64,000 nt of DNA, taken from a virus. The DNA lies in IMG/VR virus record IMGVR_UViG_3300031823_000001, positions 97,741 to 161,740 of that record; one strand, 5' to 3'. This document shows positions 21,361-55,339 of the stretch, piece after piece; the first letter of the stretch is position 1; each line of letters begins with the position of its first letter. Under the pieces are notes generated by a model. That model searched no databases. It was not told the DNA's origin and saw nothing but the letters and a program-made list of their open reading frames with translations. The position numbers and the translations under genes were made by a program.

Positions 21361-21389
21361 AGTACCATATCCGCAAAGGAGGAAACACC

Positions 21390-22498: not shown

Positions 22499-22500
22499 CA

Positions 22501-23469: not shown

Positions 23470-23477
23470 CCGTCCCC

Positions 23478-23522
23478 GGAACCCCGGCCCGCGACCTCGC
23501 ACCTGTCGCGGGCCGGGGTTTC
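23478..23522 (+). terminator. Hairpin terminator or attenuator before dnaE
   Basis: AACCCCGGCCCGCGAC / GTCGCGGGCCGGGGTT followed by T. Confidence 0.65.
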
Positions 23523-23538
23523 TGGTCCTGGAGGAACG

Positions 23539-26955: not shown

Positions 26956-26994
26956 AAGCGATACAATCTTTCCAGATAAAAAGAAAGGACGAGA

Positions 26995-36215: not shown

Positions 36216-36296
36216 CACAAGATCACCGGCACCTTACCCTTGGGTAAGGAACATGTGCCGGAAGTGAAACGCTGTAAAGGCGGGAAGGAGATGTCC

Positions 36297-36596
36297 ATGA
36301 GCAGGAGCGGAGCCGGAACTGTCCGGACGGGCGTGCACGTGAGTGCGGCGCCCTCGGGCTGCGGCGCCTGCGGGCACCCCTACACCCTGCACAGCAACGG
36401 CAGGACCGGCTGCAAGGCGGCCGGCTGCAACGCGGGCCCCGCCGAGCCGTGCGGCGAGTGCCACGGCACCACCTTCAGCCTTGTCGCGGGCGTCGAGTGC
36501 ACCGTCTGCTCCGGCCGGGGCTCTGTCCCGGCGCCGTGCCCGGGGTTCACCTCCCGCGACCGGGTGCACGAGGCGGTCGAGCTGCTAGCCTCGTAA
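36297..36596 (+). CDS. Small Cys-rich Zn-finger protein
   Basis: AAGGAG RBS; CGACGH...H...C...C and CxxCxG repeats. Confidence 0.65.
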   Translation: MSRSGAGTVRTGVHVSAAPSGCGACGHPYTLHSNGRTGCKAAGCNAGPAEPCGECHGTTFSLVAGVECTVCSGRGSVPAPCPGFTSRDRVHEAVELLAS

Positions 36597-36709: not shown

Positions 36710-39700
36710 ATGGCGTCGATTCAGGGCGACGGTCACGGCACTGACTGGGACCGTGTCTTCCGGGAGAAGGACCCCCGCCTCACCGAGGTGCACCGGGGCC
36801 TGCGCATCTGGCCGGACTACGACGCCTACCAGCACGCCCACGACAAGTCCGTCCCGGTCGCCGAGCGCGCCCACGCGCTGCTCGGCCACATCGGCGACCT
36901 CATGAGGCGCGAGCATCGTGGCATCGGCATGAGCTGGAGCGACAGCCCGACCCTAGCCCGGCAGGCCGCCGGGGAGGGCGGCTGGAGCCATCACGGGCTG
37001 ACCGGGCGCCCGGACCCTGAGAGCCCGGACTACGATGACCGGCCCTTCCACATGCCGGTGGTGCTGAACGCGGCGTGGCCTGAGAAGGAGCACATCGAGA
37101 CGCGCCCGCACGTCCTTGACCGCCACGGCGTGTTCCCCTATGACGACGCGGAGATGTCGCAGGGCGAGGTCCCCGTCCGGAATGGTGCCCCGGTGCGGGT
37201 CACCGGGATCTCCTGGGCGAAGGACGGTACCGAGCGCGACACCTGGAACCACCACGTCTTCGACCACCCGGTGCACTACAACGGCACGGAATTCGAGCCC
37301 CACGGTCCTGGCCACGAGCACACCGCCGCGCTACTGGAGCACTTCGAGGCAGCGGAGGGTGACGGCCGCCGCTACTACCACGCCAGCGACGAGGACTTCG
37401 AGCCCGGCGACACCGTGTCCGGCGGCCACCGGCTCGACGACCTGTACCTGGCCGACACCATCCCGGGCGCGCACAAGTACTACACCTCGGGCAACGTCTA
37501 CGAGATCGAGCCCCATGACGATCCGCAGCCGTCGATGAAGGGCGAGTACACGGTGCCGTCGGGCACCGTAAAGCGCAGGGTGCCGTCAGAGGAGGTCAGC
37601 AAGGCCGTCCGGGACGCCTACAACGCACCCGACCAGAAGGCCGCGCGGGACCGCACCAACCGCCGCCAGCGCGAGCACTCCTGGCGCGTCAAGAACGACC
37701 GCTGGTACCACGGCTACGGCGGCCAGGACAAGCCCGGCTGGGACGAGTACCAGTCCCACTGGTTCCCTGAGGGCATCGAGAACGCGACGGACGAGCAGTC
37801 GGAGGCGTCCCGGCACGGCAGTCCCCTGCCGCCGGAGATCCACCGCTGGATTCACGGGACGGAGGCCGCCGTGCAGCCGATCGACCTCTACCACCACACC
37901 ACTCCGGAGAATGCCGCCGCGATCATGCGCGAGCGGAAGATGAAGTCGGCCGAGCGAGGGCCGGACGGCCGTCTCTCAGCGTTCTTCACCACCGACCCGT
38001 CTCCCTTGGAGAGCCAGGCGGGCAGGCGGGGGAGCGCCACGGTTCACGTCCGGGTGCCCGAGCACCTGACCTGGGTGGAAGACGAGTTCCCGTCGGGCGA
38101 GCAATGGCACGGGATTCCGCTGGCAGAGCTGCGGCCTGAGCACTTCGTGGACTCCGAGATCAGCCGGGAGGCATCCGTGCAGCATCATGGCATCAGCGGG
38201 GAGAGTGCCCCGGAGAGCGCGGACATCTTCGCCGAGCCGACCGGGATCAGCCCGGTGGGCTCCCACCACGCGGACCTGATGCGCCACCCGGAGAGGTCCG
38301 TCCGGGTGAACGGGCGCGGGGAGAGCGAATGGGTGCACCCGCACCTGACCGCCCCGGACCACGGCCCGTACTACGTCGCCCGCGACCCCGGGGATCCGGA
38401 CGGCAACGAGGGCACCCTGCATGTCCTGGACCGCAACGGCCACGCGACTCACCGGCCCTACAAGGGCGGTAGCTGGCAGCACGCCAATGCCTACCGGGAC
38501 TGGCACCGGCTGACCTACCGCCAGGACCCGGAGGGGGAGGGGACTGAGCGCGACGTCCCCTCGATCATGGAGGACCACCAGCGGCACCTGTCCGCGAACC
38601 CGCCGCAGTTCCCGCATTCCCGCACCGACCCCCGCGACACCGAGATCCTGAGGCGGCCGGACGCCCGGGTGGCGCGGCCGGAAGGGTACAGCCCGAGTGA
38701 CGAGTACCACGGCTCCTACGAGGTGGTGCGGCACCCGGACACCGGCCGGTTCCACGTCGTGGACAACCAGGGCCGTCACGCCGGCGCCGGCTATGACGGC
38801 GCGCCCACGCAGATCGGCGCGGAGCGGTCCCGCGACTATATCGAGAAGCGCCAGATGGGCAAGGAGCGCGCCCGGGGCATCGCCGACAAGCTCATGGGCG
38901 GCGGCATGGAGGCTCTCGACCCGGGCGGCACGGCGGAGTCCCGCGAGTCCGAGGCGAATATGGCTGCGGCCTCGGACATGATGGGCCGTTACGAGGGCGG
39001 CCGGGGCAAGGTCAAGTTCGACTCCGACGAGGAGGGCGGGCGTCCCTACTACGAGCGGGAGCACCACCTGCCGAACGGGCAGGCCTCCGGCTGGTACGCG
39101 AAGCACTACGGCGGCCCTTCCGCCGACGTCTACCACCGGGCGACTGGCGACCTCTCCTACGCCCTGCTGCGGTTCCCGGTGCACCCGGAGGACGAGGGCA
39201 GCATGACCCCGCGCCTGCACCCGGCCTTCCGCGACGAGCACCTGGCGGAGTCGCTGAAGAACTGGCACGACAACGAGGAGAGCCAGGAGCGGCAGTCCCT
39301 GGAGGCGGCCGACCCGAGGATCAGCCGCTGGAAGCAGCAGCGCCTCGGCTCGCAGCACGAGGTGGTCGCCCACTTCGAGGAGACGGCCGCCGCGCAGGAC
39401 CCGGACGAACGCCCCTTCGGCTACTACACCCTGCGCCACCGCACCGAGGACCTCGGCGAGCGCAAGCCCCGCCATTTCATCGAGGCCCACACCCCCGAAG
39501 GCAGCGTCGTCGGGCGGATGAACTGGTTCGGGACGACCGGCTGGGTGCACCACATCGACGTGGCAGGCGAGGAGGACGACGTCGGCAACGGGTTGTCCTC
39601 GATCGGCGACGGCCGCGACCACCAGGGACGCGGCCTGGCTACCGCCATGTGGGACTGGTCGCAGGAGATGCGGCCCAAGGCGAAGCACTCCAAGGACCAG

Positions 39701-42700
39701 TCCAATCAGGGCAAGGCGTGGGCGCGCGGGCTGAAGGACCGCGAGCGCCGCGACCCGCCGGAGGAGCCGCCGTCCTTTCAGGTGACCGCAGCAGCGGAGT
39801 ACGGCCCGAAGCCCGAGTTCCGGGCTGCGCCGGAGCACCTGTCTGATGACGAGAAGATGGAGCACTGGGAGGGGGAGCGCCGGAAGAAGCACGCCTGGGA
39901 GTCGCACATCCGCCGGGGCCTCGCCCTGGGCCACCTCGACTACGGCTGCGCCCGCGAGCTGGGCTACTGGGGCAACGGGGACGAGCACCCGGACGAGACG
40001 TGGAACCACGAGGGCGAGATCGTCTCCCGGCGCGGGTGGCAGCCGCTCCCGCAGCGCCTGTACCACGTCACTACCAACCTCCCGGCGGTCCGCGAGCACG
40101 GGCTGAAGTCCCGCCGCGAGCTGGGGCAGCACACCACCGGGGGACTGGGCCTCGGCGGCGGCCCGGACGACACCGTCTCCCTGACCTCGCATCACGGCAC
40201 CGCCCGGAACATCCTGCGGTCGATGCATGAGTACCACGACGTCCTCAACGGCAGGAAGACCCCGCAGGAGATGATCGACGAGGCCCGCACCGGGTCCTCG
40301 GCGGAGCGTCCCTTCCTGCACGACTGGATCGGCCTGTCCGGGCACCCGGTCCCGGAGGAAGACGAGCTGCCCCGGCCGATGCGGGCGGTAATGGAGGGCC
40401 ATGAGGTCTACACCAACCCGACGCTGCGCACCCGCGAGGACATGCACGAGCAGGAGGGTCCCGGCTGGGAGCCGGAGGACGAGGGGCGTGACTTCGCCGG
40501 GCACCACGTCCACAACGGGCCGTGGCGCCGCACCCCGACGCCCGAGCGCCGCCGCCAGCAGCTATCGGAGTTCTACAAGAACTTCTCCTGGGCCAGGTCG
40601 TGGGCGAAGGGGCCGGACAACCCGCTGTTCTCGGCCAACGACGCCGAGGGCTTCGCGCACCTCGACCCCCGGCACTTCGCGATCGTCCACGCGACCCCGC
40701 ATCCCGGCGCCCAGGGGTTCCCGCAGTCGTCGCTGCAAGAGTGGCGCACCGCGAGCGGTGACGCAGTGCACGTGCACCGGGCCGAGCAGCTTGAAGGCGG
40801 CCACCTGAAGGAGGCATCAGTGAGCCTTGCGTCGCGCTTCCAGCCAGGGCTTCGCAACCCGCACACAGGCGGGGACGAGTGGTTTCACGGCACCCAGTCC
40901 GACCCCGGGGACTTCGTGCACGGGTTCTCCCACGACGACACCCATGACCACGAAGACGAGGAGCTGCGCGAGCACCTGTCGCACTGGAACACCAAGCTCG
41001 GCTCTCACTTCGCGGCCGACCACGGGGTGGCGGAGCACTTCGCCCGTCAGGGGGCTTCGACGGACGACGACGAGGACGACTGGGGCGGTGACGACGGCCG
41101 CAGCCGCTACCAGGAGAAGGACCCGCAGTCGGTGATCCACGCCCGGCTGCACCTGCGCAACCCGAAGGTCTACGACTCTGAGTTCGACATGGACCACGAG
41201 GCGTACGAGCACGAGTACGGGCAGCGGAAGAACTACATCTCGAAGCACTTCGAGGACAGCTACGAGGACGAGGACCCGTCTCACGAGGATTACGACCCGG
41301 ATACCCCGGGCGAAGGCGAGGAGTGGCCGCTGGCCGCCCGGTACCGGCACGACGACAAGCAGCCGATCCCCCGTGAGCAGATGCAGCGCCGGACCCTGTT
41401 CTCCAACCCGGACATGCCGGAGATGCCGGAGCGTACCCGCTGGCTGGCTTCCCACCCGGACAAGGCGGGGATTGCCCGGCGCTTCAAGGAGCGGCTCCAG
41501 GCCCAGGGCCACGACGGCATCCTGTACGGCAATGAGTTCGAGACCAGCCACGCCACCGGGGACGGGGGTCACCACGACCTGTCGGCCATCATCTTCCACC
41601 CGCACCAGGCGGAGATCACCCAGCACCACCAGACCGGGGCTCCCTGCCTGTCGCGCGAGGAGGGCGAGAGCCAGCGGGGCCGGATGCCGCAGCCCGGCCA
41701 GGAGGAGCTGCCCGGTGTCGAGGAGCACGCCGACCACTTCCCGAACGGGTTCCTGCGCGGCGCCGCCCTCCTCGCTCACTTCGGGGAGCCGAGGACGGCT
41801 ATGCCGCTGCACATGCAGCAGAAGCTCTTCCACATGCAGCCCGACCCGACATTGCACGAGCCTGAGTCCGGCCGCCATAACCCGTCCGACCCGGAGGCGC
41901 ACCTGCGCTGGCGGCACGAGCACGACGAGGGCTACGAGCCGGACACCTGCGAGCAGTGCGGCGAGGACCAGCGGCGCTGGCGCGAGCACGCCGAGAAGCA
42001 CGACGACTGGCAGCGCGGGCAGGACTGGTACACCGACTGGAGCGAAGAGCACCCGGGCGATGCCATCCACCGGGGTATCGGCGTCGCCCTTCCTCCGGAG
42101 GTGCACGCCGTGGTGCACGACGAGTCGCGGCCCCTTGCCGAGCGCGCCCGCGCCCTGGCGCATCACGTGGTGAGCAGGGGCGGCCTGGGAAACTTCTGGT
42201 CGTCCGACCCGGACGTGTCGAAGACCTACGCCGAGTCGTCCGCGAAGCGGTACAGCAGCCAGGGCGAGAAGACCCCGGTCATGCTGCATGCGCACACCCC
42301 GGGCACAGAGCACATCGAGACCGACCCGGAGACGCTCCAGCACTGGGGCGTTTACTCCTACCACCTGGCCGGGAACCGGGAGGTGCCGCTTCAGCACCAG
42401 GCCCCGGTGCACCTGAAGGGCATCTCCTGGGCGCCTCCGGGGCACGAGGCGCAGGGACCTCACCCCTCCGATCCCAAGTGGCACAACCCGGGACCGCACC
42501 GCTTCGACCAGGACCGGGCCTGGACGCACCACGAGTTCGGTGGCGACGGGATAAGCGCGAATGCCTCCCTGGCGGCGGTTGTAGCCCACTTCGATGAGGG
42601 ACCGCAGGTTCCGTCGTTCACCTGGAAGTACCAGACCTACGGGCCGGAAGGCGGCTACACCGACAAGGAGCAGGAAGTCGCCGGGCCGTTCTACCACGGC

Positions 42701-44164
42701 AGTCGCTCGAAGGGACTGCGCCCCGGCAGCAGCGTGAAGAAGGGCATGTCGGCCAACCCGTGGGGCGACGAGGGCAACGAGGCGGCAGAGCCGGACCCCT
42801 GGGATGAGTTCAGCCGGCCCTCTCGCTACATGCGGGCTCCCGAGGAGCACGAGGCATTCGGCCATCTCAGAGATGACCACAGGATCAACCCGGAGCTTCT
42901 GATGCGGCTGCCCGATGAGACTCTCCGTAGAACTCACTACGAGATACACAGCGGCGAGCTGTACGGGGCGCCAGGCAGCGGTCATTACCATGATGAGCGG
43001 CCCGGTGAAGACAACTGGGACGGCGCCCTCCGGGGGCTTCATCCTGAGGCATCCCTCCCGGCCGTCGTCGCCCACTTCGAGGATGGCGACCAGTACGTCG
43101 CCCCGCCGCAGCCTGGCGACGAGACGTGGAGCCACCTCCAGGAGGCGCACGGAGCGCGCCCTTCGGCGGGCAGCGACAAGGCGCCGGGCGCCGACTTCAC
43201 GAGTGCCCTGCACCGCAGGTTCCACGACGGCAAGAAGGCGTTCCCGGGGTCGGTCCCCCACCATCACGGGGCTCAGGCCGAGGCCCCGGCTGCCGGGCAG
43301 TCTGCCAGGGACTCCATCTCCCGGATGTTCACCCCGATCCCGCCTGAGGAGCTGGAGGCGCAGCGGCGTGCAAGCGAGCCGAAGCCCGAGCGGCTCGACG
43401 ACCGGGAGTACTCGATCCGTGACGTGAGCAGGCACTACGACTGGGAGGGGTTCGACCCCCACGAGATCGAGCACCTGGTGCACCGTCCCGAGCACGCGAC
43501 TTTCACCAGGGAGGACGTGCCGGTCCACACCCTCCGGCACGCGGACGAGCACGGGAACCTGGTGGCGCCGCCTTCCTACCACGACATCGCCAGCCAGGAC
43601 GACGACGAGCGGGAGCGCCTGGAGGGACTGGAGCGCGGCTACGAAAACGGCGAGCCGGTGCCGCCGATCGTGACGGTCCGCGACGGCGAGCACCACATCA
43701 TCGCCGACGGCTCGCACCGGGCGGCCGTCCACGTCAGGCGCGGCAGCACCCACATCCCGGCGTTCGTCACCCAGCGGACCATCTACCCGGGAGCGCACGA
43801 GGCGTCGCGCCGCGAGGACGAGATCGTCCTGGCGCCCGTCTGCGACACCGTCCCGGCGATCGACGCCTCCCCGCTGGCGCAGGTGATCGCCGCCGCCGGT
43901 CTCCTGGGGTCGTGGGCGCCGCAGACGCGGGAGGACGCGCTGGACGGGATCAGCGCGTTCACGGCTGAGGTGCTCCCCGCTCTCCGCCAGGGGCTGCTAC
44001 GGCTGGCGGCGGTCATCGAGGAGATGCCGGTGCACCCGGACGTCGCCGAGCTGCTCTACGGCATAGCGCGGGCGTCCCGGGTCGCGGCGCAGGACGGCGC
44101 GGAGATGCTGCGGAGGCTGCCCCCGGAAGCACCATGGCAGGAGAGTGGTCCCCCAAATCGCTGA
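36710..44164 (+). CDS. Polyprotein 1 (about 2484 aa): multiple ADP-ribosyltransferase-fold modules, GNAT, ParB-like and TraA-like domains
   Basis: Motifs HRG..W(S/T)..EVP x2, YYHAS..VYEIEP, LYHHT, LYHVT..GL.SR, WFHGT..LRNP..GHDGI, QGRGLAT, DGSHR. Confidence 0.85.
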   Translation: MASIQGDGHGTDWDRVFREKDPRLTEVHRGLRIWPDYDAYQHAHDKSVPVAERAHALLGHIGDLMRREHRGIGMSWSDSPTLARQAAGEGGWSHHGLTGRPDPESPDYDDRPFHMPVVLNAAWPEKEHIETRPHVLDRHGVFPYDDAEMSQGEVPVRNGAPVRVTGISWAKDGTERDTWNHHVFDHPVHYNGTEFEPHGPGHEHTAALLEHFEAAEGDGRRYYHASDEDFEPGDTVSGGHRLDDLYLADTIPGAHKYYTSGNVYEIEPHDDPQPSMKGEYTVPSGTVKRRVPSEEVSKAVRDAYNAPDQKAARDRTNRRQREHSWRVKNDRWYHGYGGQDKPGWDEYQSHWFPEGIENATDEQSEASRHGSPLPPEIHRWIHGTEAAVQPIDLYHHTTPENAAAIMRERKMKSAERGPDGRLSAFFTTDPSPLESQAGRRGSATVHVRVPEHLTWVEDEFPSGEQWHGIPLAELRPEHFVDSEISREASVQHHGISGESAPESADIFAEPTGISPVGSHHADLMRHPERSVRVNGRGESEWVHPHLTAPDHGPYYVARDPGDPDGNEGTLHVLDRNGHATHRPYKGGSWQHANAYRDWHRLTYRQDPEGEGTERDVPSIMEDHQRHLSANPPQFPHSRTDPRDTEILRRPDARVARPEGYSPSDEYHGSYEVVRHPDTGRFHVVDNQGRHAGAGYDGAPTQIGAERSRDYIEKRQMGKERARGIADKLMGGGMEALDPGGTAESRESEANMAAASDMMGRYEGGRGKVKFDSDEEGGRPYYEREHHLPNGQASGWYAKHYGGPSADVYHRATGDLSYALLRFPVHPEDEGSMTPRLHPAFRDEHLAESLKNWHDNEESQERQSLEAADPRISRWKQQRLGSQHEVVAHFEETAAAQDPDERPFGYYTLRHRTEDLGERKPRHFIEAHTPEGSVVGRMNWFGTTGWVHHIDVAGEEDDVGNGLSSIGDGRDHQGRGLATAMWDWSQEMRPKAKHSKDQSNQGKAWARGLKDRERRDPPEEPPSFQVTAAAEYGPKPEFRAAPEHLSDDEKMEHWEGERRKKHAWESHIRRGLALGHLDYGCARELGYWGNGDEHPDETWNHEGEIVSRRGWQPLPQRLYHVTTNLPAVREHGLKSRRELGQHTTGGLGLGGGPDDTVSLTSHHGTARNILRSMHEYHDVLNGRKTPQEMIDEARTGSSAERPFLHDWIGLSGHPVPEEDELPRPMRAVMEGHEVYTNPTLRTREDMHEQEGPGWEPEDEGRDFAGHHVHNGPWRRTPTPERRRQQLSEFYKNFSWARSWAKGPDNPLFSANDAEGFAHLDPRHFAIVHATPHPGAQGFPQSSLQEWRTASGDAVHVHRAEQLEGGHLKEASVSLASRFQPGLRNPHTGGDEWFHGTQSDPGDFVHGFSHDDTHDHEDEELREHLSHWNTKLGSHFAADHGVAEHFARQGASTDDDEDDWGGDDGRSRYQEKDPQSVIHARLHLRNPKVYDSEFDMDHEAYEHEYGQRKNYISKHFEDSYEDEDPSHEDYDPDTPGEGEEWPLAARYRHDDKQPIPREQMQRRTLFSNPDMPEMPERTRWLASHPDKAGIARRFKERLQAQGHDGILYGNEFETSHATGDGGHHDLSAIIFHPHQAEITQHHQTGAPCLSREEGESQRGRMPQPGQEELPGVEEHADHFPNGFLRGAALLAHFGEPRTAMPLHMQQKLFHMQPDPTLHEPESGRHNPSDPEAHLRWRHEHDEGYEPDTCEQCGEDQRRWREHAEKHDDWQRGQDWYTDWSEEHPGDAIHRGIGVALPPEVHAVVHDESRPLAERARALAHHVVSRGGLGNFWSSDPDVSKTYAESSAKRYSSQGEKTPVMLHAHTPGTEHIETDPETLQHWGVYSYHLAGNREVPLQHQAPVHLKGISWAPPGHEAQGPHPSDPKWHNPGPHRFDQDRAWTHHEFGGDGISANASLAAVVAHFDEGPQVPSFTWKYQTYGPEGGYTDKEQEVAGPFYHGSRSKGLRPGSSVKKGMSANPWGDEGNEAAEPDPWDEFSRPSRYMRAPEEHEAFGHLRDDHRINPELLMRLPDETLRRTHYEIHSGELYGAPGSGHYHDERPGEDNWDGALRGLHPEASLPAVVAHFEDGDQYVAPPQPGDETWSHLQEAHGARPSAGSDKAPGADFTSALHRRFHDGKKAFPGSVPHHHGAQAEAPAAGQSARDSISRMFTPIPPEELEAQRRASEPKPERLDDREYSIRDVSRHYDWEGFDPHEIEHLVHRPEHATFTREDVPVHTLRHADEHGNLVAPPSYHDIASQDDDERERLEGLERGYENGEPVPPIVTVRDGEHHIIADGSHRAAVHVRRGSTHIPAFVTQRTIYPGAHEASRREDEIVLAPVCDTVPAIDASPLAQVIAAAGLLGSWAPQTREDALDGISAFTAEVLPALRQGLLRLAAVIEEMPVHPDVAELLYGIARASRVAAQDGAEMLRRLPPEAPWQESGPPNR

Positions 44165-47100
44165 CGCCGCCCCGCCCGATCAGGGCGGAGGCGGCCGACG
44201 ACCGCATCTGGTACCACGGAACGCCAGATGAGCGGACCTGGGAGCACGGTGCGCCCTACGGCATCCACGTGGGTACCGAGGAGGCAGCCAGGCAGGCTCT
44301 GCACGCCCGGATCGGCAAGCCTGCCGAGGGCGAGTGGGACGGCACCCGGGAGTACGGCAAGACGCTCCTGAACAGGGACTACAGCATCTATAGCCTGGAC
44401 GGCACCAAGACAACCCAGCGCAATCCGCCGTCGTACCCGACTAAGGGGCCTGGCTACAGTGACGGGACCACCGGCCCTATGGATGCCCGGCCGAGCATCT
44501 TCCCGGTCCGGATCAAGGGGCCGATGACTAATCACCCCGACGCCCCGGTGACCGACGATTACGCGAACGGCCGGATGCGCGGGCAGATCACCCGGGGTAA
44601 TGCGCGGCGCGGTTACTACTACACGAACCACGGTGAGGACGAGGGATCTATCTCAGCGGCCGTCCCGTCGGCCGCCCACCTGGAACGGATTCATCCGCCG
44701 AAGACTGCGGCTCACGGCGGTGAGCGGTCCTACGTTCTCTACCACGGCGCTCACCATGACGACGTGCGTAGCATCCTGGCCTCCGGCCTGCGGGGGGACC
44801 CTGACCAGCCGACGGTGACGACGAGCCGCGAGGGCGCCGAGCTGTACGGCCGTAAGCGCGACTGGACGGCGCCGAAGGTGCTGGAGATTCACGTGCCCCG
44901 CTCCCAGGTGCACCGCTACCTGGGCGAACCGCAGGAGGGCCTGCCGGTGGAAGGCACGGTGCACGCGCTGCGGGAGACGCTGCCGCCCGCGTTCATCCGC
45001 GCGGTGCACGAGGCGAGCCTGAGACGGGGAGCTGCCTGGAGTCCCCAAGTTGGGATCTTCGGCCCGACCACCGGCCTGGACCCGCTGCTGTTCGATGAGG
45101 GCGGCATGCTGCGCGGCCAGGTCCGCCACGAGATCATGACGCGGCTCGACCAGTGCCTCCGGGTGAACTCCGGGCTGGCCGGGAGCGACTGGCAGGAGTG
45201 GCTGCACGTCTGGCTGACGGGCGGGTCGGCCTCGGAGTGGGCCGGGTCACGGCCGAATGAGAAGGCGCAGGACCTGGACGTCATCGTGGCGATCGACCTG
45301 CCCGAGGCCCAGGGATACGGCGCCTTCGATGGGATGAACGGCGGGGAGGCCGCCTCCGCGCTGAACGCCGCCCTCTGGAAGCACTTCAACACCGACGGGT
45401 GGCAGCCCGGGTTCGGCGGACGCTGGAATCTCACCGCGTTCTGCAACCAGCGGGCGAAGGACGGCATCGGGGCGATCAAGCCGTACGCCGCCTACGACGT
45501 CACGGGCATGCGGTGGGCGGTCTCCCCTCCCCACCTGCCGGAGCACACCGTCGCCGACTTCGACCCGGCGGTGATCGCCCACGCCCGCGCGGTGGCGGCC
45601 GAGGCCCGCGCCATCCTGCGGATGCCCGAGCCGCTGCGCACCCGGGAGGCCCGCGACCTGTGGGAGCACGTCCACCAGCACCGCTGCACGGCGTTCTCGA
45701 AGGAGGGCACCGGCTGGGAAGATCCCGGCAACGTGGACGAGAAGATGCTGGCATACGCCCCGCACGACTTGCTGGGGAAGATTAAGGAGCTGGCGCTGAA
45801 CAGTCAGCAGAAGACGGCTGCCTGGTCGCCCGAGTGGCCGGAGGACGAGCGGTCATGGCGCGGGGAGCGTCGTCTGCTGCCCCTTACGGACCTGATCGCC
45901 AACGATAAAAACATGCGCGAGGTGCTGTCCTCGGGACGCCGTTCTGAGACCGTCGGTGCCATCCACGTCTGGCCGCGCGATGACATGCCCGGCTTTGAGA
46001 TCGGTGATGGCCACCACCGGGTCGCCGATGCCATCCGCAGGGGTGAGACCCATATCGACTCAGAGGTCGAGCCGTGGCCCGACGAAGAGCAGTACGATCC
46101 CCCGTTTTACGACTTCAGCCAGCACATGCGCCGGGAGTCAGCCCTGGCGAAGACGGCCGCCGCGCAGAACCCGCCGTGCCGGTACTGCGGGGAGCCCCTC
46201 GACGAGGAGGACGTCCGCGACGGCCACAGCGCGCACGAGGAGTGCTCCGACATGCGCTGGTGCGAGCCGCACCAGGAGTACCACGATGACCCCCAGGAGG
46301 CCGAGGGCCACAACGGCACGTACACCGACTGGGGCTGCTACCTGCCGTTCGAGGGCGGCATCCACCGGGGCCTTACCGTCCGGCTGCCGGAAGAGGCTCA
46401 CCGCCTGGTGCACGACGAGACGCGTCCGGCCGCCGAGCGAGCCCGCGTGCTGAAGAGCCACCTCGACGATGGCGGCCACTACGGCGTCCACTGGACCGAT
46501 CACCTGCCTGTCGCCCAGGCGTGGGGCTCGGACAACGGGGCCGTCTTCGGCGTCCCCGACCCGGACGACTCCTCGCGCACCCACGTGGTGCTGCACGCCG
46601 CGAGCCCGGGTGTGGAGCACATCGAGGATGACCCGGAGAAGCTGTCCGGCCGCAACCTGTGGGGCTTCGGCCATGAGAACTCCGAGCGCGAGGTCCCGCT
46701 GAAGGAGGGCGCGCCCGTCCACGTCACCGGCATCTCGTGGAAGCGCGGCGGCGAGAGCGAGTGGAACCGGCACGACTTCGGGGAGACCGCGCCCAAGACC
46801 GCCTCGTGGGACCACAGCGGATCGGACCACAGCGGCGTCTACCTGCGGTTCGGCGACTGGCCGCACGACGAGCGGTCCTTCAGCCCGGCCGGCGGCTACC
46901 ACGAGGAAGGCGTCAGCGCCTACGACCTGGACCGGCACGGCGACCCGTCGATCGACCACGGCCTCAACCGGGGCCATCAGCACGACGACGAGTGCGACGT
47001 GGACGAGAACGGCACCTGCCAGTTCCAGGACCCGTGGGGGGAGCCGGACAACGACCCGCAGGAGGAGATGCGAGGCCGCGTCGCCCGTGCCGAGCGCTCC

Positions 47101-50100
47101 CGCTACTACGGCAGCGACAAGCCCTCCGAGGTAGGTCACCTCGTCCGGGGAGAGATGACCGGCGTCGGCTACGACGGCGAGCCGTTGCTGAAGAACGTGA
47201 GGCGGGTCGGCGACTGGATCGACCACCGGCACCTGTTCCTCGACCAGGCGAAGCCGCACCGCCTTGCCCGCGACCCCTCTGACGAGGACTACGAGGAGCC
47301 AGAGGAGAAGCCGCCGTACGGCTACCGCAACCGCACTGCTGCCCTGGAGGCCGGAACCCAGCTGTATCACGGAAGCCTGCACCAGTACGCGCCGGGCACA
47401 GTACTCACTCCCGAAGGGAAGGACGCCGAGGGCTCCCGCTGGTCGGGTGACTACGTCTACGCCGCCACGAGCCCGGAGGCGGCCCGGTACTTCGGCTCCA
47501 TGCACGACACCACCCCCATGAGCGACGCGGACGTGCACGTGCACCGGGTCGAGCCCGTTGGTGACGTAGAGCCGGACGAGTTCCCCGAGGGCGCCGAGGA
47601 CGAGAGGTTCGCTCGCGGGAACTACCGGGCGAAGGCGCTGCGCGTACTCGACAGCCGCCGCGTGCCGGGACACTGGGCGAAGACGGGCGCCTACGAGGGC
47701 GAGCGGATGCTCCGCAACACCCACGAGCTTGGCTGGAGCAACGAAGAGTGGGCTGCCGCGCGCCGCGAGCCGTGGCACGCGGCGGCTAAGCTCGCCCAGC
47801 GGCAAGTGCGCCTGGACCACCCGAAGACGACCATGGATTTCCCGCGCGGCGAGGAGGGCGACCGGATGGTCGGCCATATCCTCCGCCATACCGGGTACCA
47901 GGGGGACGTCAGCGGGGCGTTCGTCTCCCGGCATCCTGATCCCGCGAGGAGGACCTCCAATCCCGCGTGGCTGGACGGGTACCCCGGGGTAACCCTGCAC
48001 CCGGAACGATGGGACTACGGCACTGTCGCGCATGAGGCCGCCCACCACGCAGTGATGGAGGCCCACGGTGTCGGCCCGAACCAGTACGAGTCCGACGAGG
48101 CCAGTCACGGCCCCGAGTGGGCCGGGCACTACGCGCAGGGGCTGAACAGGATCTCGAAGAGCGCCGGGGACGACTTCCTGGCCCACCACCAGTTCTACCG
48201 GGACCTGATCGGCGAGGGCCTCCAGTGGAAGCGCCCGTCGGACATGGACGCGGCCGACGAGCGGTGGCGGAACTCGGGGGAGTCTTACCCGCGCGGTCCC
48301 CGACCGCAGCAGAGTCACTACGGCACGGGCATCGAGCGCGAGGCGGCAGCGGCAGAAGGACCTGCCGGGATCCGCATGGTCGAGCCTGAGGAGTACCGGA
48401 AGTACGTCTTCCCTGACTACCCGGCGAAGACCCTCCCGGCTCTCGCCAGGCACCTGAGGAAGAACAGCCCGGGGTACTACGACAAGCTCCGCGCTGACGT
48501 GCAGGCTAACGGGGTCCGCACGCCGCTCCTGGTGCGCTTCCCCGGCGTTCCCGGGCACCCGGTGAAGAAGCCGCAGGTGATGGATGGCCATCACCGGGGA
48601 GCTGTCGCCAGCGAGCTGGGCCTCCCGGTGCCAGTTGGCGACTATGACAACGAAGAGCACTATCGGTCGGCTATGCAGGCGGGGCAGGCGTGGTTCCGCG
48701 AGAACCACGACCTGAAGGCCGGCATCGTGCGCGAGGCGGCAGCCGACCCGGCTTACCTGCACGGAGGGCCGAACCGGGTGGAGCCCGGCGGTCTCATCCA
48801 CCAGGACGCCATGCCGGAGAGCTACGGTCGGCTAAGCCATAACTTCTTCACTACCAGCCGGGACGTGGCCGAGGAAGCCGCTGACATGCGCAACGGCCTC
48901 GGCCACGGCTGGGTGCATACCGTTGAGCCGACCGGGCCGTTCGAGGTTGACCCGGGCGAGCCGGATTCCTGGAAGTCGGAGGCTCCCCTGCGGGTGCTGT
49001 CGGTAGAGCCGGGCCGGCTGAATGGCAAGGTCCCGCACCCGCCGATCGTGCGCGAGGCGGCGGCTGAGCACGGCCCCGTCTACACCTACGTGCCGGGCTC
49101 CTCCCCGGGGTCGCACGCGATCGTCGCGCACCCGGCCGGGGCCGAGCAGACGAAGGAGAACCGCATCGGCAGGCTGAGCTGGACCGAGGAACCCGAGGGA
49201 CCGCGCGTCGTAAACGTCCACGTGGACGAGGGGTGCCGGCGGCACGGCATCGCGACCGAGATGCTGCGGCGCGCCGAGGAGATCACCCCCGGGATCAGGC
49301 ACTACAACCCTAGTCCCGACGCCGTGAAGTGGATCGAGGGGATGGGCAAGGAGGCGGCAGCCGGAGACTACCGCCAGCCGCACCAGGGGCCGGACGCTGA
49401 GGACGGGGAGGCACTGCACGAGCTGGGGACGAAGGGTTTTTTCCCGCCTGACGTGCACGAGCGTCCGCAGGATTACGGGGCCGACACCCAGACGGCGGGC
49501 AAGATCCGTAAGGCACGCGGCAACCCGGACGAGCGGATCACCATGTACCGGGCGATGCCGAGCCCGCATCACAAGATCAACACAGGCGACTGGGTGACCT
49601 TGTCCGAGGACTATGCCCGTGAGCACGCCGAAGAGTCTCACCCGGACGATAACTACGCCGTCCTCGGTAAGGTCACCCGCGCCAGGCACCTGCGCAATGA
49701 TGGCAACGACCTGAACGAGTGGACCTACCACGGGCCGACCCAGCACTTCCCGAAACTTGTTGACCGGGGCGGCAAGAACGGCGGCTGGAAGAACTCAGCC
49801 GAGCTGAGCAAGGCCCAGTGGAAGGACGTGCCCCCGGAGGATGAGATGCCGTCCCGCGAGGCGGCCAGCTCTGACGGCGTCCCCCAGCGGCCGAAGCGGA
49901 CCCCCGGCAGCGCCATGGTGTACCTGGACGTCCCGCACGGCACCGTCGAGCCGTACGAGGGGATGGAGACCGGCCACCACGTCGCCCTGGCGTACCTGCC
50001 CCGCAAGATCGGCGACGAGGACTTCGCCCGGGTGGTGGACCGCGCCCGGGAGGCGGCGGCCAGGCACGCGCCGATGAAGGCCACCATCTCGGGCGGCGGG

Positions 50101-52551
50101 GTCTTCCCGCCCGGCACCCCGCCCGACCGGCGGAGGGCGGCGGTCGTCCCGGTGCACGCCCCCGGCATCCACGAGCTGCACCGCGAGTTCTCCGAGTTCG
50201 ACCGGGCGCACTACGAGGCGTACACCCCGCACGTCACCCGGGCGCAGCTCGGCGGCCACCAGGCCGACCCGCCGGCGCACCCGGAGGTGAGCTTCCCCGT
50301 CACCCACGTGCACGTGCGGCGGGGCGACGAGGTGCACTCCTTCCCGCTGACCGGGACGAGCCGCACAGAAGCCGCCCTTCTCGACCCGAAGTGGCGCGAG
50401 GTCCAGGTCATGAACGGCTGGACCTGGGACCCTACCCCGCGTCCCGTCGGGAAGGGATACGACACCCGGCCGGTCTCGGTGCGCGCTGACGACGCGGTGC
50501 GCGATTACCTGACGCACCGCAGCCAGCACGACAGCGAGACGGACGAGGAGTTCGCCGAGCGCAAGGCAGACATCGGGCGCTACGGCCCCTGGCACAAGCC
50601 GAAGGACAGGGACGTCCGGGTCCTGGAAAAGTACCGGGACCGGGCACTGAAGGGCGGCCCGATCCGGCGGGAGGGCGGCAGGAACGGGAGCATCCCGCAG
50701 GGAACTGAGTTCAGGCACGAGGTACTCGAACCGCCGGACGACTTTCACCAGATCACTGCCGAGCACCCGGAGCACGGCAGGATCGGCCGCATCACCTGGG
50801 AAGGGGCGTCAAGCGGCATCTTCCCGTCTGAGGTGCACGTGGCAGAGGTGCATCCCGACTTCCGCCGCCGGGGGATCGCCACCGAGTTGTTCCGCCGCGC
50901 CTCGGAGATCACCCCTGGCTTGCATCATGCGCCGGAGGAGGCGCAGGGTGACGACGCAAGGGCCTGGATCGCCCGTGAGGCGGCTGCCCGGACGGTTTGC
51001 CCGTACTGCGGCACCTACGAGGACGCCCACCCGCAGTTCGAGGGCCTCTACCACGCGACAAGCCCCGCGCACCGGAACAGCATCAGGGACTCGGGGCTGC
51101 GCACCGAGTTCGACCAGGGCGAGGACATGACCGAGCCCGGGATCTACATGAGCCCGCACTCTAACGATGACGCCCACCAGGACGTCTGGCACGTTGATAT
51201 CAGAGGACTGCGCCTCCACCCGGACGACCCGGGGAACATGGAAGAGTTCAAGGACGTCGGCGGGTCCTACTTCTCGAAGGAGGACATCCCCCCGGAGAGG
51301 CTGCACCTGCACCGGCCGGGCACGGGGAACAAGTGGATCGGCTATCCCCCGAAGACAGCGGCGGCCGGCCCGCAGTTCTTCCATGGGACCGACTCGAAGC
51401 TGAGCGAAGGCGACCTGATCGTTCCCGGTCGCCCGAAGGTGAACGCAGGCAGCGACCCCAGGCACGTCTACTTCACCGAGAAGTACGAGCACGCCGAGGG
51501 CGCGGCGAGGGGAGCCACTGACCGCCGTGCCACCAGCTACGACCGCGAGAACGGCAGGTGGGTGCATGACGCCCCGGGGGCGCACTACGTGTACGAGGTG
51601 GAGCCGACCGGGGAGTGGGGACAGGACGAGCAGCTCCCGTGGACGCCCTACAGCCACCAGTCCGCTCACCCGCTCCGGGTTGTGCGTGACGTCACCAGGC
51701 GTGACGGGGACATGCACCGCGAGGCGGTCAGCGGCTACGACGGGCTGACCGGGCGCTCCGCGATGATCTACCTCGATCTCCCGCCGGGCACCGTGCGGCT
51801 GGTGCCCGGCGGGGTCGATGATCACCACGTCACCCTGGTGTACCTGGGCAAGAACGTCAGCGACGAGGCGTTCGGGGAGGCCTGCCGCCGCACCAGGGCA
51901 GCCGCCGCGAAGCTCGCGCCGATGGACGGGGTGCTGCGCGGCATCGACATCTTCCCGCCGTCTAAGTCCAGCGACGGCAAGGTGGTCGCGTTCGTGCCCG
52001 CCTACATCGGCAGCGTCGGGCTGCTGCGCCGCGAGCTGGATGACCTGTCGGCCTCCGAGCACACCGACTGGCGCCCGCACGTCACCCTCGCGTACCTCGA
52101 AGAGGGCGACTCGCTGCCCGCACCGCACCCGGCGGTGCCGCTGCGCTTTGACCGCATCCACGTGAAGCGCGGGGACGACGTACGGAGCTTCCCGCTGGGC
52201 GGGATGCAGCGCCAGGCAGCGGCTGAGCTGCCTGCTTACTATCACGGCACCAGGTACGAGCTAACCCCGGGGCAGGTGCTGACTGGCGGCGCGAAGCCCG
52301 CGAACAACCCGGGTGTCGGCAGGTACGAGCACGTCTACATGACGCGGTCGCCGATGGGGGCTCATGCGGCGGGGAGCCTCGCCTACGATGAGCTGGGATA
52401 CCAGCGCGGGCAGCCTAACGTCTACGCCGTGGAGCCCCTCGACCCGGTAGAGCGCGACCCGTTTACGAACGGAGCTGTGCGCAGTAAGCGCGCCCGGGTG
52501 ATACGTAAGGTCAACCCGTTCACTGAGCCATACGATGGTGACGATGACTGA
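44134..52551 (+). CDS. Polyprotein 2 (about 2805 aa): about 10 ART-fold modules (four Arr-like), nucleotidyltransferase, two ParB-like, zincin, two GNAT, two 2H phosphoesterases
   Basis: (F/Y)HG..VEP Arr pattern, GGS..DLD, DGHHR x2, HEAAH..HGPEW, RRxGIAT x2, HVT/HVT pairs. Confidence 0.85.
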   Translation: MAGEWSPKSLTPPRPIRAEAADDRIWYHGTPDERTWEHGAPYGIHVGTEEAARQALHARIGKPAEGEWDGTREYGKTLLNRDYSIYSLDGTKTTQRNPPSYPTKGPGYSDGTTGPMDARPSIFPVRIKGPMTNHPDAPVTDDYANGRMRGQITRGNARRGYYYTNHGEDEGSISAAVPSAAHLERIHPPKTAAHGGERSYVLYHGAHHDDVRSILASGLRGDPDQPTVTTSREGAELYGRKRDWTAPKVLEIHVPRSQVHRYLGEPQEGLPVEGTVHALRETLPPAFIRAVHEASLRRGAAWSPQVGIFGPTTGLDPLLFDEGGMLRGQVRHEIMTRLDQCLRVNSGLAGSDWQEWLHVWLTGGSASEWAGSRPNEKAQDLDVIVAIDLPEAQGYGAFDGMNGGEAASALNAALWKHFNTDGWQPGFGGRWNLTAFCNQRAKDGIGAIKPYAAYDVTGMRWAVSPPHLPEHTVADFDPAVIAHARAVAAEARAILRMPEPLRTREARDLWEHVHQHRCTAFSKEGTGWEDPGNVDEKMLAYAPHDLLGKIKELALNSQQKTAAWSPEWPEDERSWRGERRLLPLTDLIANDKNMREVLSSGRRSETVGAIHVWPRDDMPGFEIGDGHHRVADAIRRGETHIDSEVEPWPDEEQYDPPFYDFSQHMRRESALAKTAAAQNPPCRYCGEPLDEEDVRDGHSAHEECSDMRWCEPHQEYHDDPQEAEGHNGTYTDWGCYLPFEGGIHRGLTVRLPEEAHRLVHDETRPAAERARVLKSHLDDGGHYGVHWTDHLPVAQAWGSDNGAVFGVPDPDDSSRTHVVLHAASPGVEHIEDDPEKLSGRNLWGFGHENSEREVPLKEGAPVHVTGISWKRGGESEWNRHDFGETAPKTASWDHSGSDHSGVYLRFGDWPHDERSFSPAGGYHEEGVSAYDLDRHGDPSIDHGLNRGHQHDDECDVDENGTCQFQDPWGEPDNDPQEEMRGRVARAERSRYYGSDKPSEVGHLVRGEMTGVGYDGEPLLKNVRRVGDWIDHRHLFLDQAKPHRLARDPSDEDYEEPEEKPPYGYRNRTAALEAGTQLYHGSLHQYAPGTVLTPEGKDAEGSRWSGDYVYAATSPEAARYFGSMHDTTPMSDADVHVHRVEPVGDVEPDEFPEGAEDERFARGNYRAKALRVLDSRRVPGHWAKTGAYEGERMLRNTHELGWSNEEWAAARREPWHAAAKLAQRQVRLDHPKTTMDFPRGEEGDRMVGHILRHTGYQGDVSGAFVSRHPDPARRTSNPAWLDGYPGVTLHPERWDYGTVAHEAAHHAVMEAHGVGPNQYESDEASHGPEWAGHYAQGLNRISKSAGDDFLAHHQFYRDLIGEGLQWKRPSDMDAADERWRNSGESYPRGPRPQQSHYGTGIEREAAAAEGPAGIRMVEPEEYRKYVFPDYPAKTLPALARHLRKNSPGYYDKLRADVQANGVRTPLLVRFPGVPGHPVKKPQVMDGHHRGAVASELGLPVPVGDYDNEEHYRSAMQAGQAWFRENHDLKAGIVREAAADPAYLHGGPNRVEPGGLIHQDAMPESYGRLSHNFFTTSRDVAEEAADMRNGLGHGWVHTVEPTGPFEVDPGEPDSWKSEAPLRVLSVEPGRLNGKVPHPPIVREAAAEHGPVYTYVPGSSPGSHAIVAHPAGAEQTKENRIGRLSWTEEPEGPRVVNVHVDEGCRRHGIATEMLRRAEEITPGIRHYNPSPDAVKWIEGMGKEAAAGDYRQPHQGPDAEDGEALHELGTKGFFPPDVHERPQDYGADTQTAGKIRKARGNPDERITMYRAMPSPHHKINTGDWVTLSEDYAREHAEESHPDDNYAVLGKVTRARHLRNDGNDLNEWTYHGPTQHFPKLVDRGGKNGGWKNSAELSKAQWKDVPPEDEMPSREAASSDGVPQRPKRTPGSAMVYLDVPHGTVEPYEGMETGHHVALAYLPRKIGDEDFARVVDRAREAAARHAPMKATISGGGVFPPGTPPDRRRAAVVPVHAPGIHELHREFSEFDRAHYEAYTPHVTRAQLGGHQADPPAHPEVSFPVTHVHVRRGDEVHSFPLTGTSRTEAALLDPKWREVQVMNGWTWDPTPRPVGKGYDTRPVSVRADDAVRDYLTHRSQHDSETDEEFAERKADIGRYGPWHKPKDRDVRVLEKYRDRALKGGPIRREGGRNGSIPQGTEFRHEVLEPPDDFHQITAEHPEHGRIGRITWEGASSGIFPSEVHVAEVHPDFRRRGIATELFRRASEITPGLHHAPEEAQGDDARAWIAREAAARTVCPYCGTYEDAHPQFEGLYHATSPAHRNSIRDSGLRTEFDQGEDMTEPGIYMSPHSNDDAHQDVWHVDIRGLRLHPDDPGNMEEFKDVGGSYFSKEDIPPERLHLHRPGTGNKWIGYPPKTAAAGPQFFHGTDSKLSEGDLIVPGRPKVNAGSDPRHVYFTEKYEHAEGAARGATDRRATSYDRENGRWVHDAPGAHYVYEVEPTGEWGQDEQLPWTPYSHQSAHPLRVVRDVTRRDGDMHREAVSGYDGLTGRSAMIYLDLPPGTVRLVPGGVDDHHVTLVYLGKNVSDEAFGEACRRTRAAAAKLAPMDGVLRGIDIFPPSKSSDGKVVAFVPAYIGSVGLLRRELDDLSASEHTDWRPHVTLAYLEEGDSLPAPHPAVPLRFDRIHVKRGDDVRSFPLGGMQRQAAAELPAYYHGTRYELTPGQVLTGGAKPANNPGVGRYEHVYMTRSPMGAHAAGSLAYDELGYQRGQPNVYAVEPLDPVERDPFTNGAVRSKRARVIRKVNPFTEPYDGDDD
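44152..44195 (+). promoter_or_regulatory. Candidate -1 ribosomal frameshift signal
   Basis: C CCA AAT in the polyprotein-1 frame, 7-nt spacer, 12-bp GC stem at 44166-44195. Confidence 0.5.
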
Positions 52552-53743: not shown

Positions 53744-53882
53744 TCCTGGCTTTACGTCAGGCGCTTCCGCAAGAAAGCGCTTGTTCCTTGCAACGCGGGC
53801 CCGGACCGATGGGCCTGCGCGCAGACCGGGCGACCCGCACTGGCTCTGGGTCGCCCGGTCTGCCGTTTCCGGAGGAGGACTG

Positions 53883-54470
53883 GTGGAGCAGACGGACCGC
53901 GAGACGGCGATGACTGCCTTGTACGAGGACTACGCCAGGGCGCCGGTCCTCGCGAGACTGGCCGGAGGGCGGACGCTGGTGCGCGGCCACGGGATGCTCA
54001 GCGCCCCTGTCGCGGTCGTCGGCGAGGCACCGGGCGAGCAGGAGGACCGCCGGGGCAGGCCGTTCGTCGGGCCGGCCGGGCTCTTGCTGAAGGACTTGCT
54101 CGGCAAGGCCGGGATTCCGTGGGAGTACTGCTACGTGACCAACGTGCTGCCGTGGCGCCCCCCGGCCAACCGCACCCCGTACCCGTTTGAGGTTCAGGCG
54201 TCCGAGGCGCGCCTGGCAGCCGAGGTCGCCCTGGTTGACCCGGTGGTGGTCGTCGCGGCCGGGGAGGTCGCCTGGCGCGGCCTTACCCGGGGCAGCCTGG
54301 GGAGGTTCGCCGGCGCGCGGTTCCAGTGGCACGAGCTGGACGGCCGCCGCCTCCTCGCGGTCCCGCACCCGAGCTTCATCCTGCACCTGAAGGAAGCTGA
54401 GGTCCCTGAGTGGAAGAACGCCACGGTCGAGGCGCTGCGGCTGGCGCTGCCGCAGAAGGCCAGCGCGTAG
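53883..54470 (+). CDS. Family-4-like uracil-DNA glycosylase
   Basis: VGEAPG..ED..GRPFVGPAG, YVTNV..RPP.NR.P, HPS; GGAGGAGG RBS. Confidence 0.9.
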   Translation: MEQTDRETAMTALYEDYARAPVLARLAGGRTLVRGHGMLSAPVAVVGEAPGEQEDRRGRPFVGPAGLLLKDLLGKAGIPWEYCYVTNVLPWRPPANRTPYPFEVQASEARLAAEVALVDPVVVVAAGEVAWRGLTRGSLGRFAGARFQWHELDGRRLLAVPHPSFILHLKEAEVPEWKNATVEALRLALPQKASA

Positions 54471-55301: not shown

Positions 55302-55339
55302 CCCGGCCGCAGAAGGTACAGGAACCCACGGGAGGGCTG

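Follow-up and report, generated by a model that had tools for sequence, protein, structure and literature searches.

Two adjacent phage genes encode about thirty modules whose joints share a short motif with the phage's own prohead protease-scaffold protein

We report on two adjacent genes in the IMG/VR virus record IMGVR_UViG_3300031823_000001, studied in a stretch of 64,000 nucleotides (positions 97,741 to 161,740 of the record; hereafter the window), which is the last 64 kb of one 161,740-bp contig with a GC content of 68.8%. The genes encode polyprotein 1 (PP1) and polyprotein 2 (PP2), chains of approximately 11 and 19 modules, respectively, which bears out the figure of about 30 given in an earlier sequence-only reading of this DNA. 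Most joints between the modules of PP2, and some of those in PP1, carry the tetrapeptide [KRH][ETQ]A[AS] (hereafter the strict motif), and the same motif stands at boundary sites of the phage's own prohead protease-scaffold protein. We lean, if not strongly, towards the reading that PP1 and PP2 are polyvalent cargo polyproteins, which would be packaged into the head and cut at their linkers by the prohead protease.

The module boundaries were set without the motif: they are the points at which BLAST alignments to mosaic homologues, 50 at first and 95 later, begin or end. PP2 contains 16 matches to the strict motif, while 5000 composition shuffles gave 1.0 on average and 6 at most; the density is 5.7 per 1000 residues compared to 1.17 in the other 128 open reading frames (ORFs) of the genome. 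Fourteen of the 16 matches fall on clusters of BLAST end-points (p < 5e-5), and the two interior ones belong to the active site of a zincin (HEAAHH) and to a helix inside a 2H domain. Counted by joints, 14 of the 18 in PP2 have the strict motif, three have a near variant (KTGA, RTEAA, REAV) and one has none. PP1 contains six strict matches (2.4 per 1000 residues), four of them at boundaries; the remaining boundaries show the variants GTEAA, VTAAA, ETAAA and PRTA and/or a second linker element, [LV][LV][AE]HF[EDG] (hereafter VVAHFE), present in five copies in PP1 and nowhere else in the genome. The sequence-only reading had listed motif positions, every one of which we reproduced exactly, and the enrichment that it expected at boundaries relative to interiors and to other genes is what the PP2 counts show. 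Its statement that nearly every boundary carries the motif stands for PP2 but not for PP1, where only about half of the boundaries do so; PP1 leans partly on VVAHFE, which that reading did not describe.

PP1-like and PP2-like proteins of 1.6-4.4 thousand residues (the longest relatives reach 4364) are encoded on many metagenomic contigs, including a dozen of 149-167 kb; our literature searches found no description of the polyproteins of this clade. Mosaicism is strong in this family, with no more than 5-41% of each protein covered by the best local alignments and with modules in many orders. Over 95 polyproteins (236,110 residues) the strict motif is 10.3-fold enriched at junction residues (p 1e-120), with 211 of its 743 matches in junctions that make up 3.7% of the residues, whereas the control motifs [KR][DNS]A[AS] and [ED][ET]A[AS] (1.5-fold and 1.7-fold in the same proteins) are not enriched. 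Considered by segment, the strict motif is found in 42% of 731 junctions against 11% of random windows, and the strict motif, a relaxed form of it or VVAHFE in 65% against 18%. VVAHFE itself was counted 126 times in the family; it shows a 10-fold enrichment at junctions and is usually flanked by Ala-rich or TAA/EAA sequence (e.g., HTAA-LLEHFE-AAEG or REAAAAPAAE-VVAHFE-DPA). The 2H domain illustrates the pattern: within the 6-10 residues that come after its conserved end ('FPLGG'), about 20 relatives retain x-[KRH]-[ETA]-A-[ASV] whichever module follows (MQREAAA, MAREAAA, IQREASA, LSKAAAW, TPKTASW), and where the domain is the last in the chain, the protein just ends there.

In about ten cases a PP1-like and a PP2-like protein are apparently paired, which suggests a conserved gene pair, and the gene order PP1-like, PP2-like, uracil-DNA glycosylase (UDG) is kept in a 161-kb relative (a contig of a metagenome-assembled genome, the one context that was read). 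In this relative an Endonuclease VII gene on the same strand (L006:9165-9788) and two small ORFs of 83 and 42 residues on the opposite strand lie between the PP1-like gene (4264 residues) and the PP2-like gene; in the window, PP1 and PP2 overlap.

A prohead protease, which the sequence-only reading proposed to look for elsewhere in the genome, was found as the N-terminal part of a 1369-residue protein, P0052 (Table 1). Residues 33-224 match phrog_18299 (E 1.6e-20). In VIA comparisons their AF2 model (pLDDT 82) gives Z 10.9 and a root-mean-square deviation of 2.7 over 127 residues with T4 gp21 (5jbl), and Z 8-10 with herpesvirus proteases; to judge from this model, the domain is a prohead protease of the T4 gp21/herpesvirus assemblin fold. 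The VIA comparison was needed, as Foldseek alone returned weak E-values both for this model and for that of the R-S-E module described below; PDB sequence-profile searches gave nothing significant for the protease domain or for the R-S-E, nucleotidyltransferase and zincin modules. The near-invariant Ser141 ('RTSMG') is the predicted nucleophile of the protease. The rest of P0052 comprises DUF7178, zinc ribbons, an acidic tract and a C-terminal coiled-coil part resembling a scaffold.

Homologues of P0052 (120 of 345 were examined) carry the linker motif at three places. Directly past the protease domain it is found in 35 of 111 homologues (...RGMAKAA[AS][KR]TA[AS]; background 7.4%), and downstream of this point the sequences diverge completely. 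Directly before the scaffold coiled coil there is KTAA or RTAA in 13 of 19 homologues and KTGA, which is also the variant at the M7/M8 joint of PP2, in 6 of 19; one homologue has KEAA there. The third place is fixed relative to the C-terminus, from which it most often lies 34 residues away (PVQR[TAQ]AAR.[VA]PSLASVG); the motif is there in 66 of 97 homologues against a background of 10%. From their sequence and position we consider these to be putative processing sites of the protease itself. The proposal that the linkers are prohead-protease sites is thus supported as far as the protease is present and has the same motif at its own sites; the cleavage we infer. A complex prediction for the protease domain with a 40-residue PP2 linker segment scored 0.02 and gives no verdict either way.

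Modules are exchanged between the polyproteins and the protease-scaffold proteins. Module N4 of PP1 is inside at least 16 of the latter, including P0140, P0124 and P0134 (BLAST identity 41-51%, E down to 1e-106); the zincin module of PP2 is inside P0118, P0167 and P0135, and the phrog_2579 module (M12) inside several. Arr, NUDIX and GNAT modules are inserted in P0134, P0121, P0161 and P0099; the Arr module of P0134 is preceded by REAA-RHPG-LLEHF-AAAG, and REAA and LLEHF also flank the inserted modules in P0161 and P0099. In the more distant homologues P0050 and P0051, 2H, NUDIX and ART (ADP-ribosyltransferase) modules are fused to a portal domain; these fusion proteins lack the linker motif, as would be expected if the motif is tied to one protease lineage. 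P0051 is a portal-polyvalent fusion of 3104 residues with an intein splicing domain (865-1153) and a C-terminal exoenzyme-type ART, and the metagenomic homologue P0048 has a LAGLIDADG domain. Together with the adjacency of the putative large terminase gene (terL), the portal fusions and the insertions in protease-scaffold proteins of relatives suggest a virion context for PP1 and PP2, if indirectly.

The scheme that we infer is as follows. Translation of each polyprotein would give a single chain whose enzyme modules fold independently and are shuffled freely, and the joints of the chain would carry [KRH]-[T/E/Q]-A-[A/S] as the recognition site for the phage's own prohead protease of the gp21/assemblin fold. 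The chains would co-assemble into the prohead core and be cut at the joints during head maturation; approximately 30 separate small proteins would then be kept in the head, be ejected with the DNA and modify host targets early in infection. Considering that Thr is as common as Glu at position 2 of the motif, and that Ala and Ala/Ser are fixed at positions 3 and 4, the site would have a basic residue at P3, Thr/Glu at P2, Ala at P1 and Ala/Ser at P1'. Assemblin cuts between Ala and Ser; by analogy, the cut would most likely fall between the invariant Ala and the next Ala/Ser. In the sequence-only reading the enzymes were to be released at injection; with a prohead protease as the cutter, the analogy predicts otherwise, namely cutting during head maturation.

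It is possible, although we would sooner doubt than assert it, that a 'junction code' operates throughout the clade: modules bounded by [KRH]-[T/E]-A-[A/S], often together with VVAHFE, could be placed in a cargo chain or in the protease-scaffold protein and freed by the head protease, with about 30 exchangeable enzymes per virion. The released modules would retain VVAHFE as a second signal, e.g., for head retention or for the order of ejection. A double-stranded DNA phage would then supply its virion cargo by a polyprotein strategy like that of RNA viruses.

Several points weigh against cleavage by the prohead protease. In the family, 35% of the junctions have no recognised element and only 42% have the strict motif; in PP1 the latter is found at only 4 of 10 boundaries. 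The strict form of VVAHFE is absent from the protease-scaffold family, and the C-terminal site of this family may be kept for capsid binding rather than for cleavage. In Gordonia phage Pupper, whose protease domain is 43% identical, the protease protein, gp93 and the capsid protein show no such motif pattern, so that published data on cluster C-like phages are not transferable. The polyprotein genes lie approximately 53 kb from the portal-to-capsid block, adjacent to replication genes and UDG, and their late expression is therefore an assumption; no capsid-targeting signal or leader was recognised in PP1 or PP2. Finally, the zincin embedded in PP2 could be the processing enzyme.

It is unlikely, in our opinion, that the chains remain uncut, the motif and VVAHFE being structural joints (helix caps or folding insulators) of giant proteins that act whole, like polyvalent proteins of the N4 vRNAP type. 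Such joints would be consistent with the third of family junctions that lack a recognised element, and REAAA resembles helix-forming spacers of the EAAAK type; some polyvalent proteins are packaged unprocessed (PMC5512222). The codon usage of the linkers also fits: A or T is the last base of 34% of the Ala and Thr codons within the linker motif but of 13% of those in the rest of PP1 and PP2 (odds ratio 3.4, p 4e-4), which would suit translational pausing at domain borders. These codons may reflect slow translation at module borders or the avoidance of GC-only runs. However, a structural spacer needs no fixed tetrapeptide of a basic residue, Thr/Glu, Ala and Ala/Ser, and no enrichment was seen for the control motifs; KTAA is not particularly prone to form a helix, and structural joints leave the motif at three boundary sites of the protease-scaffold protein unexplained.

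That the same linkers are cut by the zincin of PP2, in cis or in trans, before packaging, in the head or after injection, seems to us quite improbable. The module has an invariant HExxH with a downstream His in 23 copies, it occurs in 33-35 of about 50 PP2-like proteins and also inside protease-scaffold proteins, and processing driven by the MPTase domain was proposed for polyvalent proteins such as P1 DdrB (PMC5512222). However, PP2-like proteins devoid of the zincin still carry the motif, and many relatives with a zincin-free protease-scaffold protein keep the motif at the boundary sites of that protein; a motif at the protease's own sites is the classical signature of autoprocessing by a prohead protease. 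The zincin might just as well act on host proteins, as an effector.

The linker codons vary synonymously in PP1 and PP2 (ACT, ACG, ACC and ACA for Thr, all four codons for Ala), the longest DNA run common to linkers is about 11 nt, and the five copies of VVAHFE differ at most third positions; such free variation indicates that the peptide is under selection rather than a recombination site in the DNA. The idea that the joints are DNA boundaries promoting in-frame module shuffling, with the peptide incidental, agrees with the mosaic alignments and the many module orders of the family and is nevertheless, in view of this variation, very hard to credit.

The modules are listed in Table 1. As the sequence-only reading held, these are multi-enzyme proteins of the polyvalent type; we assign Arr-type ART, R-S-E ART-fold, GNAT, 2H, nucleotidyltransferase, ParB/Srx-like and zincin-type modules in them. 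Support at the sequence level exists for four Arr-type ARTs (PF12120, Pfam gathering cut-off 25 bits; one is below it), two GNATs, two 2H phosphoesterases and one phrog_2579 module; the ParB/Srx-like motif DG[HS]HR was recognised in three modules by eye only. No function could be assigned to about half of the modules, including nearly all of PP1, and the modules have no paralogues elsewhere in their own genome. The R-S-E module is the commonest in the family (122 copies, one in PP2 and two in PP1), with E119 invariant and H10 and R11 near-invariant; it has no sequence-level match to Pfam or PDB. The AF2 model of the PP2 copy, M5 (pLDDT 89.5), gives VIA Z 5.8-4.5 with TreX, pertussis S1, LT-A, PltA and Scabin, and about 40 of the 50 best structure rows are of the ART fold; Z is low, so this is a fold assignment and not one of family membership. 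The nucleotidyltransferase M3 scores 0.95 to viral nucleotidyltransferase clusters in the atlas, with G68, S72, D85 and D87 invariant. For the zincin M8, in which H111, E112, H115 and H136 are invariant in the 23 copies, the SprT-like match (E 0.028) is below cut-off and the best PDB profile match is a snake-venom metalloproteinase at only E 0.44. M3 is a stand-alone gene in Streptomyces phages (PP2 residues 311-559) and M12 in cluster E mycobacteriophages, where the tblastn matches begin at residue 1745, just past a linker; both stand-alone matches start or stop at linkers. An atlas search with N4 had no usable match. The helical tail of PP1, N11, ends at or no more than 7 residues from the C-terminus in 16 of 16 homologues, while all other modules shuffle, and is from this placement a candidate anchor or targeting domain.

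Table 1. Coordinates of the genes and modules, in window positions unless marked otherwise (HSP, high-scoring segment pair)
Feature	Position	Strand	Linker that follows	Remarks
Putative large terminase, 707 residues	34092..36215	+		phrog_2 E 3.8e-9, weak; no Pfam match
Small Cys-rich protein, 118 residues, DnaJ-type CxxCxGxG Zn-finger repeats	36240..36596	+		translation; no Pfam or PHROG match
PP1 gene, polyprotein 1, 2484 residues from ATG 36710	36710..44164	+		52 long homologues
N1, R-S-E ART-fold module (HRG ... E.EVP)	36710..37318	+	HTAA-LLEHFE-AAEG 37319-37360	paralogue of folded PP2 module; boundary at HSP ends
N2	37361..37855	+	GTEAA 37856-37870	no Pfam match; boundary at HSP starts
N3, small 'YHHT' module, possibly ART-like	37871..38164	+	REAS 38165-38176	weak Tox-ART-HYD1 match, E 0.16
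N4, about 390 residues (517-905)	38177..39352	+	HE-VVAHFE-ETAAA 39353-39394	homologous to inserts in protease-scaffold proteins
N5, GNAT-like by eye	39395..39778	+	VTAAA 39779-39793	no Pfam match; also in protease-scaffold protein P0135
N6	39794..40807	+	KEAS 40808-40819	no Pfam match
N7, with acidic insert	40820..41758	+	GAA-LLAHFG-EPRTA 41759-41800	
N8, CxxC ribbon and R-S-E ART-fold	41801..42568	+	AA-VVAHFD-EG 42569-42601	38% identity to PP2 702-896; family alignment
N9	42602..43054	+	PA-VVAHFE-DG 43055-43087	
N10, ParB/Srx-like 'DGSHR' motif	43088..43795	+	HEAS 43796-43807	ParBc Pfam matches in homologues, no direct match
N11, helical non-enzyme-like tail, about 118 residues	43808..44161	+		
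PP2 gene, polyprotein 2, 2805 residues	44134..52551	+		uninterrupted ORF
M1, 'WYHGT'	44134..44700	+	KTAA 44701-44712	
M2, small 'YHGA' module	44713..45006	+	HEAS 45007-45018	weak PARP match, E 0.06; 39 HSP end-points at the linker
M3, pol-beta-type nucleotidyltransferase (GGS...DLD)	45019..45810	+	KTAA 45811-45822	
M4, ParB/Srx-like ('GDGHHR')	45823..46149	+	KTAAA 46150-46164	sequence motif, no significant Pfam match
M5, CxxC ribbon and R-S-E ART-fold domain	46165..46794	+	KTAS 46795-46806	
M6	46807..47331	+	RTAA 47332-47343	DUF6098 E 0.0011, below cut-off
M7, Arr-like ART	47344..47679	+	variant KTGA 47680-47691	Arr-ms 22.5 bits, below cut-off 25
M8, zincin-type metallopeptidase (HEAAHH at 48031)	47692..48336	+	REAAAA 48337-48354	
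M9, ParB/Srx-like ('MDGHHRG')	48355..48729	+	REAAA 48730-48744	sequence motif
M10, Arr-type ART	48745..49050	+	REAAA 49051-49065	Arr-ms 31.5 bits
M11, GNAT	49066..49347	+	KEAAA 49348-49362	Acetyltransf_1 27.1 bits for whole PP2, best stretch here
M12, phrog_2579 ('ParB C-terminal domain')	49363..49854	+	REAAS 49855-49869	E 2.1e-35
M13, 2H phosphoesterase (LigT-like)	49870..50364	+	RTEAA 50365-50379	PF13563 (2 stretches in PP2), 53 HSPs
M14	50380..50673	+		boundary to M15 without motif
M15, GNAT	50674..50973	+	REAAA 50974-50988	Acetyltransf_7 28.6 bits for whole PP2, best stretch here
M16, CxxC and 'YHATS'	50989..51351	+	KTAAA 51352-51366	
M17, Arr-type ART	51367..51717	+	REAV 51718-51729	Arr-ms 42.6 bits, phrog_17296
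M18, 2H phosphoesterase	51730..52209	+	RQAAA 52210-52224	PF13563, PF02834; linkers after the domain in 40 homologues
M19, C-terminal Arr-type ART	52225..52548	+		Arr-ms best stretch 2702-2777; 106.5 bits for whole protein
P0052, protease-scaffold, 1369 residues	genome 39201-43310, outside the window			between portal block and cement/capsid genes

The contig also encodes a portal, a major capsid protein, a cement protein, tail genes and a terminase, and a replication block (prim-pol/D5 helicase, Pol III alpha with a PHP domain, RecA) lies upstream of the polyproteins at window 18470-28098. The polyprotein genes directly follow terL and the small Zn-finger gene, an order described in the sequence-only reading and confirmed here with the reservation that the terL match is a weak one with gaps (residues 121-653 aligned to profile positions 281-616). 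The GC content of the terL region is markedly lower (0.60 versus 0.69), and an HNH endonuclease gene adjoins terL (window 33296-36215). The PP1 ORF is uninterrupted and open from GTG 36632 (2510 residues); the start on record, ATG 36710, has a AAGGTGGA Shine-Dalgarno. PP2 starts in another frame and overlaps the end of PP1 by 31 nt; the GC content at third codon positions is 0.91 in PP1 and 0.89 in PP2. The polyproteins are followed by small ORFs, UDG at window 53781-54470 and a 519-residue ORF (window 55298-56857) with five motif copies (9.6 per 1000 residues), which may, by its sequence, be another substrate of the protease. A 1345-residue protein between the portal and the protease (genome 33070-37107), with a GDSL lipase domain and long disordered acidic tracts, has four motif matches (HTAA, KTAA twice, RTAA), one KTAA being at residue 1133 in a disordered tract; it is probably another head-internal protein.

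The phage is one of the actinobacterial phages of about 160 kb. With mycobacteriophages of cluster C (Myrna, Cali) and Gordonia phage Pupper, actinobacterial phages of approximately 150-160 kb, it shares 43-47% identity in the prohead protease domain. On this sequence similarity it is an actinobacterial myophage related to mycobacteriophage cluster C. A megablast of 10 kb against a phage collection and a tblastn of PP1 against phages had no match, and a scan of viral contigs with PP2 peptide patterns returned no relatives.

To our knowledge, polyvalent phage proteins are known only from sequence analysis, and how their domains become active is an open guess. The clade described here gives the question a testable form, with a four-residue joint, a named protease whose predicted self-cleavage sites have the same sequence, and natural variants in the hundreds. 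Were the joints cut, about 30 separate host-modifying enzymes would be delivered per infection, at least seven ART-fold modules among them, and candidates for anti-defence and takeover activities would abound in the clade. The joint motif could also help to find virion cargo in phages that have not been cultured, and multi-enzyme delivery could be designed on the same principle.

The polyvalent proteins surveyed by Iyer, Burroughs, Anand, de Souza and Aravind in 2017 (PMC5512222) have 2-15 domains, autoprocessing by the MPTase was suggested for them, and their delivery with the virion was inferred there and in a second source (PMC9503650). PP1 and PP2 resemble them in that disparate conflict domains (ART, GNAT, ParB-like, metallopeptidase, nucleotide-modifying) are combined in one phage-encoded chain of mosaic modules, adjoining a packaging gene and presumably co-delivered with the DNA. 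They differ in having approximately 19 and 11 modules in two adjacent genes, in joints that share a motif with the prohead protease's own boundary sites (the word 'linker' is absent from that survey) and in modules exchanged with the protease-scaffold protein.

In T4-like and phiKZ-like phages, short motifs mark where the prohead protease cuts itself and the ejection proteins inside the head (PMC10052503). As in the T4 gp21, phiKZ gp175 and SPN3US gp245 systems, a protease of the same fold would here cut itself and the head cargo, which includes ADP-ribosyltransferases as does that of T4 (Alt). The known substrates of gp21-type proteases lose N-terminal propeptides at (L/I)xE or AxE, whereas the motif considered here is not Glu-specific, Thr being as frequent; it stands at about 28 joints of two multi-enzyme chains, in the manner of the cut sites of a viral polyprotein, and no capsid-targeting leader was found in these chains.

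Herpesvirus pUL26 is cut by its protease at a release site, which sets the protease free, and at a maturational site near the C-terminus, which parts the scaffold from the capsid protein (PMC4498786); an assemblin substrate peptide contains Asn-Ala-Ser-Ser (PMC13486704). P0052 likewise combines an N-terminal assemblin-fold protease and a C-terminal scaffold in one chain, with conserved x-A-A/S sites of small residues, one just past the protease and one some tens of residues short of the C-terminus. Unlike pUL26, it is a phage protein of 1369 residues with extra modules (DUF7178 and zinc ribbons, and enzymes in its relatives); the residues before the site are basic and then Thr or Glu, and the scissile bond is a presumed one. 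With the polyproteins of RNA viruses the similarity is one of logic only: one product, a recurring site at the joints and a viral protease that would also free itself. There is no homology, the phage is a tailed one with double-stranded DNA, and its chains would yield virion cargo where those of RNA viruses yield replication proteins.

Both polyvalent proteins (PMC5512222) and protease-cut head cargo (PMC10052503) are thus known in kind. We believe that the following is new: about 30 modules in two genes, with a defined joint motif and a second conserved linker peptide; the identity of this joint motif with the release-like and maturation-like sites of an assemblin-type protease; and the fact that the protease-scaffold protein and the cargo chains exchange modules.

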